Source of the DNA: Escherichia phage P1
Strand: one strand, 5' to 3'
Sequence record: MH445380.1
DNA length: 64,000 nt
Shown: one piece after another, positions 12,475 through 13,539 of the stretch
Numbering within the stretch: the stretch's first letter is position 1
How the letters are laid out: the number at the start of each line of letters is the position of its first letter
Notes under the pieces: model-generated
What the model saw: the letters and a program-made list of their open reading frames with translations, nothing else
What the model was told of the DNA's origin: nothing
Databases searched by the model: none
Made by a program: the position numbers and the translations under genes

Positions 12475-13014
12475 CTACCACCAACTGCTAGCTTTCTTCT
12501 CTCTAGCTTTTCCTTCGCTTTGCAGTAAATCTTTACTTCCTGTAGAAATATTTCTATTTGCATCAGCCTCAGACTGAATTACATCTGTCTTAGCTGCTCT
12601 CTCCTTCAACTCCTGCTCTATAAAATCGTTTTCTCGCTGGACACGAGCCGCTTTTGCTTGCAGTTCGAGTTTCATGCTTTCGAGTTGCAGCTTGCGAAGC
12701 TCATCCTCATAAGCTTGATCTCGCTTCTTGTCATTTGCTAGCTCGGCTTCTCGTTTCGCTCTACGTTCATTTTCTGCAGCAACACGCTGTTTTTCGCGTG
12801 CAGCAGCGGCAGATGCTGCTTTTTCTCTTCTAATACGTTCAGCTTGTGCTTGTTGGCGAATAAGTTCTTTTCTGGCATCCTCAGCTTGCTGCTCTTTAGC
12901 TCGCCCTTCATTTTCCGCTTGAGCAATAGCAGCAATTTGACTTTGCAACGAGTTAGCCAAGGCAGTGCCTACACTAAACGTAGAAAAGATTAGAAATAAA
13001 ATAATTTTATTCAT
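12475..13014 (-). CDS. Secreted, highly charged coiled-coil protein (sim-locus position)
   Basis: N-terminal signal peptide (MNKIILFLIFSTFSVGTALA) followed by an A/E/K/R/Q-rich predicted coiled coil. Confidence 0.6.
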   Translation of the reverse strand: MNKIILFLIFSTFSVGTALANSLQSQIAAIAQAENEGRAKEQQAEDARKELIRQQAQAERIRREKAASAAAAREKQRVAAENERRAKREAELANDKKRDQAYEDELRKLQLESMKLELQAKAARVQRENDFIEQELKERAAKTDVIQSEADANRNISTGSKDLLQSEGKAREKKASSWW

Positions 13015-13017
13015 AAA

Positions 13018-13539
13018 TTATTTCTTTTCTGGACAAGTAGCATTTGGCTGAATTCGAGTTTCATTATCTTTAGTTGAAATAAGCACAGCAAGCCCCGTTG
13101 TAAACTGGCATGCTTTACCAACTTGAGTTGAAGTGAACACCTTAGTTCCTTCTTTATAAGTCAGTGAAACACCTTCAACAATTGTTTTATCACTAACCAA
13201 AGAACCAGCCGCTGCACCAAGAGCCGCACCACCAGTACCGCCAGCTACAGCACCCAGTGTCGATGTGCCTTTAACATTATAACCGGCAACGCCCCCAGCA
13301 ACAGCTCCCAGTACCGCACCAAATGTCTGTGCCGCTTCTTTATTAGCTTTATTATCAACTTTCACTTTAGCTGGAAGCACAGAGATAATATTGACTGTCT
13401 TTGTTTCCTGCTTCGAATTCAATTGAGCGGTATCATAAACATCGGCAGCATAATCAGCACCGCTAGATTGACACCCAGAAAGAAGAATTGCAGATACAAC
13501 AAGAGCGCATAAAGTATACTTTTTAGACATAAGAATCAT
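13018..13539 (-). CDS. SlyB/Pcp-like glycine-zipper outer-membrane lipoprotein (sim-locus position)
   Basis: Lipobox LLSGC after a signal peptide; glycine-zipper segment GAVLGAVAGGVAGY...GAVAGGTGGAALGAAAGS; overall pattern like SlyB-family lipoproteins. Confidence 0.65.
   Translation of the reverse strand: MILMSKKYTLCALVVSAILLSGCQSSGADYAADVYDTAQLNSKQETKTVNIISVLPAKVKVDNKANKEAAQTFGAVLGAVAGGVAGYNVKGTSTLGAVAGGTGGAALGAAAGSLVSDKTIVEGVSLTYKEGTKVFTSTQVGKACQFTTGLAVLISTKDNETRIQPNATCPEKK

Follow-up and report, generated by a model that had tools for sequence, protein, structure and literature searches.

What does a P1-like phage carry where P1 keeps its sim genes, and what does it gain from it? This question is raised by a stretch of 64,000 nucleotides of Escherichia phage P1 (sequence record MH445380.1; "the window", whose positions are used throughout). 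The window belongs to a P1-like (Punavirus) phage-plasmid. Over bases 12300-13900 it shows 100% identity with "Punavirus P1" MH422554 and 99.4% with P7. Eight variable regions have been listed for phage-plasmids of this kind, and the sim region is number 4 (PMC9603915). A first-pass annotation had proposed two genes for exported proteins at this position, and both open reading frames (ORFs) are present at exactly its coordinates on the minus strand. Their molecular identity is well supported: they are predicted to be a phage-borne YfgH-YfgI module that forms the P7-type allele of the sim slot. The reading in which this module also serves lysogenic conversion by acting on the envelope as YfgH and SlyB do has, in our estimate, a probability of about 0.55.

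The module takes the place of simABC exactly. In P1, simA, simB and simC lie between the late promoter LPsit and the C1 operator of c4. Relative to P1, homology ends at position 12446 of the window, two bases past the annotated -22 region of LPsit, and restarts at 13823, inside the operator. These breakpoints and a shift in GC content (40.3% as against 48-49% in the flanks) define an exchangeable cassette of 1,376 bp (12447-13822, minus strand). Its left boundary is formed by the -10 and -22 region of LPsit (12426-12444, minus strand; flank 97.5% identical) and its right boundary by the C1 repressor operator Op(c4)/Oc4 (13821-13837, plus strand), with the sequence TCTGCTCTAATAAATTT; both features were transferred from the P7 and P1 annotations. 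The breakpoints of two other alleles (Ro157c2-type and E. albertii-type, see below) agree within 5 bp, at 12446-12451 and 13822-13823. Alignment of the flanks thus gave four slot alleles with coinciding breakpoints. The assignment to the sim position, made earlier from gene order, is confirmed by flanks that match P1 up to LPsit and again from the c4 operator onward.

The first gene of the cassette (13018-13539, minus strand) encodes a putative outer-membrane lipoprotein, identical to P7 Upf50.5. Counted from the first ATG of the ORF it has 173 residues, but the actual start may be Met4. A signal peptide and the lipobox LSGC were read from the sequence (13471-13539, minus strand), with the lipidation site at Cys23 and Gln, not Asp, at +2. 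Cys23 was invariant across 61 homologues, as were the C-terminal cysteines 144 and 169. A Gly/Ala-rich GxxxG stretch covers residues ∼ 64-112. AlphaFold2 (AF2) predicted a glycine-zipper helical hairpin here (13204-13350, minus strand) with two helices, at residues 64-85 and 94-112, and a variable loop at ∼ 86-98; a strand and a C-terminal beta domain complete the model. The loop was the least conserved segment of the mature protein, and nearly all of the remaining mature length was conserved.

Searches of the PDB with the single sequence gave nothing meaningful, and SlyB surfaced only when an alignment profile was used. The profile then matched SlyB (7OJF) over its full length (E 1.1e-9, residues 9-163), glycine-zipper hairpin included. 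Foldseek also aligned the AF2 model with 7OJF (E 1.5e-6, template modelling (TM) scores 0.53/0.64), the model itself having a mean predicted local distance difference test score (pLDDT) of 56. As a single sequence, residues 74-112 scored 18.2 bits against the Pfam Gly-zipper 2TM family, under the curated cut-off of 24.2. We found 483 homologues, and the identity with K-12 YfgH was 67% over 171 residues. These data argue for a SlyB-family lipoprotein with a lipobox that lacks a predicted inner-membrane retention signal. The earlier description as a lipobox protein with a SlyB-type glycine zipper is therefore correct, and its precise family is YfgH.

The second gene (12475-13014, minus strand) encodes a protein of 179 residues, identical to P7 Upf50.0. 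It matched Pfam PF17358 (DUF5384) with an E value of 3e-43 (147.8 bits, gathering cut-off 25) and was 47% identical to K-12 YfgI over 179 residues; 93 homologues were found. A cleavable signal peptide, MNKIILFLIFSTFSVGTALA|NS (12955-13014, minus strand), was predicted from the sequence and ends in A-L-A|N. The same 60 nt carry a sig_peptide annotation in P7. Export signals are thus present on both products, as the first-pass annotation had it. The protein contains 18% Ala, 13% Glu, 10% Arg and 10% Lys, and A, E, R, K and Q abound in its mature part. AF2 modelled it as a single continuous helix from residue 4 to 178 (mean pLDDT 87.7); the mature helix of ∼ 159 residues would measure ∼ 24 nm if fully extended. 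A heptad pattern of hydrophobic residues was confined to residues ∼ 90-135; instead of a canonical coiled coil, residues 28-90 resemble a single helix, charged and Ala-rich. Of the suggestion that this is a secreted long coiled coil, the signal peptide and the one long helix stand, but the coiled coil would shrink to the segment with heptads. Conservation is likewise uneven: the C-terminal half (95-179) is kept and the N-terminal half is variable.

The two genes form a conserved and translationally close pair. The DUF5384 ORF begins 3 nt past the lipoprotein stop codon, and the DUF5384 gene lies almost always directly 3' of a YfgH-like gene. In a survey of loci containing a DUF5384 gene, one genome per species, 56 of 57 genomes had a YfgH-like gene immediately upstream, on the strand of the DUF5384 gene; they covered Enterobacterales, Pasteurellaceae, Vibrionaceae, Pseudomonas and a few alpha-, beta- and epsilon-proteobacteria. 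The ratio of nonsynonymous to synonymous substitution rates (dN/dS) was 0.06-0.10 in comparisons with the E. albertii-type allele of P1-like plasmids and with an E. coli island copy, synonymous sites being saturated. The DUF5384 match, the 483 and 93 homologues, the low dN/dS and the invariant cysteines together indicate that both ORFs are real genes.

How does the pair relate to the host? In E. coli, yfgH-yfgI is a core operon, to which the phage pair is paralogous. Of 5,426 complete E. coli genomes, 5,420 contained a match in a sensitive search at the nucleotide level. The chromosomal matches were 60-80% identical and lay at yfgH-yfgI, adjoining guaBA. A match over at least 80% of the query was present in 182 genomes, and 165 records fell into a band of at least 99% identity, which we take to be the cassette itself. 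No match at 80-99% nucleotide identity was found among these genomes, so the phage pair is not a recent capture of an E. coli gene.

The host operon itself points to the outer membrane. Genetic interactions of yfgH with lptD are aggravating, and the outer membrane of mutants is defective (PMC3219608). According to a December 2025 preprint, YfgH guards the outer membrane under sodium dodecyl sulphate and ethylenediaminetetraacetic acid (SDS/EDTA) and when biogenesis genes are depleted, and BamA, LptD, OmpF/C/A, LamB and TonB-dependent receptors co-purify with it. In S. Typhi the orthologues srgIL are under SdiA regulation, and S. Typhimurium is reported to be without yfgHI orthologues (PMC11619404). 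Our literature search returned no paper naming DUF5384, upf50.0 or upf50.5.

The genes as such are not new, since they are annotated already in P7. That record gives both genes signal peptides and calls the products a lipoprotein and a membrane protein, each "similar to" proteins of E. coli K-12. What is new is limited to recognising a phage-borne member of YfgH/YfgI in the sim slot.

When would the pair be expressed? The first-pass annotation made it the first two genes of the virion operon. According to the P7 and P1 annotations, LPsit drives pmgC-tub-pmgB-sit, and it is positioned between the pair and pmgC, downstream of the pair. The pair therefore lies upstream of the late promoter and does not simply open the virion operon; the cassette is not part of the Lpa-dependent late operon. 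The lipoprotein gene is preceded by an AT-rich, cassette-specific region (13540-13822, minus strand; 31% GC). It contains the only sigma-70-like site on the strand of the pair, with a -35 hexamer TAGATA at 13806-13801 and a -10 hexamer AATAAT at 13783-13778, ∼ 15 bp from the C1 operator. A terminator scan reported three sites, all inside ORFs and not above shuffles.

The same upstream region contains the exact 12-mer AAATAATGCAGA twice, at 13773-13784 and 13687-13698 (minus strand), 86 bp apart, with no further copy in the window. The first of the two overlaps the -10-like hexamer. The 12-mer was absent upstream of K-12 yfgH and upstream of the E. albertii-type allele, and at least two matches across the window occurred in 14 of 100 shuffles. 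Given this frequency and the absence upstream of relatives, we do not accept the repeat as a regulatory site.

The sim slot is occupied by a series of alleles. Among the PLSDB plasmids, 511 matched the region; 167 carried the full yfgHI cassette, 137 the full simABC and 81 the full Ro157c2-type allele. The 167 cassette copies were all at least 99% identical (lowest listed, 99.6%). The yfgHI cassette is thus found in about a third of P1-like PLSDB plasmids and in ∼ 3% of complete E. coli genomes. Salmonella accounted for 22 of 168 yfgHI-cassette plasmids in PLSDB, as compared with 10 of 298 sim-matching and 10 of 270 Ro157-type-matching records. Many of the Salmonella cassette records are near-identical pig isolates. 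The excess may reflect such clonal isolates, or else the fact that some Salmonella serovars reportedly lack yfgHI.

The third allele was first seen in phage vB_EcoM-Ro157c2YLVW (L005:2654-3829) and encodes signal-peptide proteins of 158 and 215 residues. The product of its first gene has an N-terminus in common with SimA: the first ∼ 36 residues of the 215-residue protein match SimA from Met10 (MRKLLLPLLFMAGTVNAASSVKEICTDYTKYLGHVY). This match points to a recombination joint inside simA. All seven proteins of the three main alleles have signal-peptide-like N-termini, whereas the neighbours PmgC, Tub and KilA have none.

Two further, diverged yfgHI alleles fill the same slot in other P1-like plasmids. 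The E. albertii-type allele, found on P1-like plasmid contigs and with a lipoprotein that NCBI labels E. albertii, encodes a lipoprotein 88% and a DUF5384 protein 81% identical to those studied here. It lies within a 4.5-kb mosaic cassette (L008:6894-11398). This cassette also encodes a 107-residue membrane protein, a YfjT-family (PF27224) ORF and a 389-residue protein with a weak SH3_3 hit, and its 118-residue ORF overlaps residues 46 onward of the Ro157-type 215-residue protein. In the other variant (L069), a lipoprotein with 83% identity is followed by a DUF559/MTES_1575 protein. An 86% identical copy was located among insertion sequence (IS) elements, on a contig whose DUF5384 protein is labelled E. 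coli by NCBI.

Beyond the P1-like elements, yfgHI-like pairs of 73-74% identity directly adjoin tail or tail-fibre genes of other E. coli and Salmonella prophages (L070:5104-8071, L071 and L072:6159-8776). In L070 and L071, a gene for a 424-residue PLDc_2 protein (phospholipase D/cardiolipin-synthase superfamily) lies ∼ 620 bp upstream on the opposite strand, a neighbour that deserves mention because clsA mutations have been reported to suppress a yfgH deletion. Among sequenced phage isolates, only P1-like phages had the pair. TL-2011b (JQ011317, 41360-44784) was considered as a non-P1 carrier and rejected, since its record continues into host DNA: the end reads, in K-12 order, yfgI, yfgH, a 192-nt gene, a 153-nt gene and a pdeF-side fragment. 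This prophage appears to sit beside yfgI and to have been deposited as a "complete genome" that includes host flank. A few other phage proteins resembling glycine-zipper lipoproteins were found in BFVD, all uncharacterised.

What, then, might the pair do for the phage? The position of the slot, the exported proteins common to its alleles and the prophage contexts suggest an envelope function expressed in the lysogen. We envisage that transcription of the pair, probably in the lysogen, starts at a sigma-70-type promoter of its own within the AT-rich region. The lipoprotein would be sorted to the outer membrane, insert its glycine-zipper hairpin and oligomerise into rings around outer-membrane proteins and lipid patches, as SlyB does and as has been proposed for YfgH. 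The helical partner would act with it from the periplasmic side through the conserved C-terminal half, and the selected benefit would be protection of the lysogen at the level of the envelope. As to the nature of this benefit, a barrier to superinfecting phage, with the pair as a functional but non-homologous replacement of Sim, would be the single most likely outcome, one that we put forward tentatively. Superinfection exclusion, raised also in the first-pass annotation, would be a reading from position only. It is attractive because of two precedents: the slot itself holds Sim in P1, and TraT is an unrelated ring lipoprotein that spans the membrane by helices. Sim is, in a passage of PMC8546580 that cites Devlin 1982 and Kliem & Dreiseikelmann 1989, credited with stopping the entry of superinfecting DNA.

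Several observations weigh against the conversion module or against its role as a barrier. The promoter candidate was called on consensus alone, and such sites were no more numerous than in shuffles. No terminator-like site was detected between the pair and pmgC, so some read-through or co-transcription with the tail genes is possible. The AF2 monomer of the lipoprotein is of low confidence (mean pLDDT 56), and PADLOC gave no match for either protein. The receptor of P1 is the lipopolysaccharide (LPS) core, not an outer-membrane protein; sequestering membrane proteins would therefore be no obvious block to P1-type phages. Even for host YfgH, the SlyB-like ring is a model only in the December 2025 preprint, and nalidixic-acid sensitivity of mutants is the only YfgI phenotype (PMC3536626).

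Could the pair serve the host alone? General hardening of the outer membrane would be nearly as likely a benefit as exclusion, and thus also possible but doubtful. In its pure form, this explanation holds that the cassette adds YfgH/YfgI activity, or supplies it to hosts without yfgHI, and hardens the outer membrane against detergents, bile, chelators and serum while incoming phages are unaffected. We consider this rather unlikely, although nearly the whole mature lipoprotein is highly conserved relative to host YfgH and the published YfgH phenotypes include rescue by overexpression. The Salmonella records (22 of 168 cassette plasmids, 10 of 298 sim-matching ones) would fit as well, given that S. 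Typhimurium is reported to be without yfgHI orthologues, but this excess is possibly due to clonal sampling. Moreover, nearly all E. coli hosts own yfgHI, so that plain dosage seems a weak benefit, and the slot otherwise houses an exclusion system.

It is also conceivable that rings of host YfgH or SlyB take up the diverged phage lipoprotein and are altered by it, which might, for example, make virion release, vesiculation or the phage's own injection easier. An identity of 67% makes mixed oligomers conceivable, SlyB and Slp peptides were among the YfgH pull-downs, and the divergence is centred on the inter-helix loop. Nevertheless, we regard such interference as improbable, since strong purifying selection across the lipoprotein is more in keeping with a native activity that has been retained than with a poison subunit.

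A spanin-like lysis pair, in which an outer-membrane lipoprotein and a periplasmic helical protein fuse or disrupt the membranes at lysis, is more improbable still. The likeness is superficial, an outer-membrane lipoprotein next to a long helical periplasmic protein. We rejected this role because the helical protein has a cleavable A-L-A signal peptide in place of an uncleaved membrane anchor, because the lipoprotein is a SlyB-fold protein of 150 residues and not a short o-spanin, and because the window has a separate Rz/Rz1-type pair. The same gene pair is, in addition, a core chromosomal operon, and the slot is dispensable for lytic growth of P1, as reported for simABC (PMC10695390). The Rz/Rz1-type pair (28653-29268, minus strand) consists of a 149-residue protein with an N-terminal anchor and coiled coil and an overlapping, out-of-frame lipobox ORF (LLTLSGC). 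It places the lysis lipoprotein of this phage elsewhere than in the cassette.

Some database records tell another story. The lipoprotein is labelled "DNA methyltransferase" in the RefSeq copies of P7, SJ46, RCS47 and TL-2011b and in phrog_1277, and phage phi456 has "minor tail protein" and "tail tip protein" for the two genes. Pfam and NCBIfam revealed no methyltransferase or tail domain in either protein, the NCBIfam scan giving noise only, and the labels look like propagated misannotation. A virion component or methyltransferase is hardly credible: the labels are its whole case, and it is contradicted by the lipobox, the signal peptide, the SlyB and YfgH homology, the lack of any such domain and the fact that P1, which is without these genes, builds the same virion.

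We thus prefer the envelope-acting conversion module. In a bolder version, temperate phages of at least two lineages, P1-like phages and the prophages in which the pair adjoins tail or tail-fibre genes, would repeatedly have recruited YfgH-YfgI as an envelope-level anti-phage barrier, in which the ring lipoprotein of SlyB type walls off entry sites in the outer membrane and the periplasmic helix obstructs or senses penetration of the tail tube. This is unlikely, and less probable than either benefit considered above. If true, it would be a mechanistically new class of superinfection exclusion and would provide the first function for DUF5384/YfgI. YfgH has only lately been characterised as an outer-membrane stabiliser, the phage copy is strongly constrained, and the only characterised allele of the slot, sim, is an exclusion system. 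The pair could therefore show whether SlyB-type nanodomain proteins serve in phage-phage competition. Because the cassette is common, any change that it made to phage susceptibility or to the permeability of the envelope would be important for phage therapy and also for P1-like plasmids, which often bear resistance genes.

How does the pair compare with known systems? Its closest relative is the Upf50.5/Upf50.0 pair of P7 (GenBank AF503408), with proteins 100% and DNA 99.4% identical and the same position; P7 lists both as proteins of unknown function. The host pair YfgH-YfgI (b2505-b2506; SrgI-SrgL in S. Typhi) shares the gene order and the close spacing, and its proteins of 172 and 179 residues compare with 173 and 179 in the phage. 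The lipobox, the glycine zipper, the two C-terminal cysteines and the C-terminal half of DUF5384 are common to both. Divergence is seen in the signal peptides, in the loop between the helices and in the helical protein's N-terminal half. The upstream region differs and is AT-rich in the phage, and the phage pair resides in an exchangeable phage-plasmid slot whereas yfgH-yfgI adjoins guaBA. In SlyB (PDB 7OJF/7OJG), likewise a lipoprotein, a glycine-zipper hairpin is combined with a small beta domain, but SlyB is only 23% identical and has no DUF5384 partner.

TraT of the F plasmid (PDB 9FS5) is an outer-membrane lipoprotein that crosses the membrane by a pair of alpha-helices and forms a lipid-plugged ring, and it has been reported to protect against some phages. 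A Pfam match (PF05818) over the hairpin of our lipoprotein, with an E value of 7e-5, raised the question of TraT membership. The match scored 23.1 bits, below the cut-off of 31. A shared core fold was rejected as well, since Foldseek against 9FS5 gave E 0.07 and TM 0.25; the core domain is different. To the Cor/Llp type of phage exclusion lipoprotein, the likeness is by analogy alone. Lipoproteins of this type are small, reside in the outer membrane and inactivate a specific receptor such as FhuA.

The last comparison is with the P1 Sim proteins themselves. Orthology had been raised as a possibility in the first-pass annotation. Comparison of the lipoprotein and the DUF5384 protein with SimA, SimB and SimC revealed no similarity (best blastp E 0.13 over 30 residues), and there is thus no high identity that would make this simply the known sim locus. 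The two cassettes differ in gene number and in folds, and an exclusion phenotype is known for sim only. They nevertheless share the slot and its breakpoints; neither is part of the late operon, transcription of both diverges from that of c4, and the products of both are exported.

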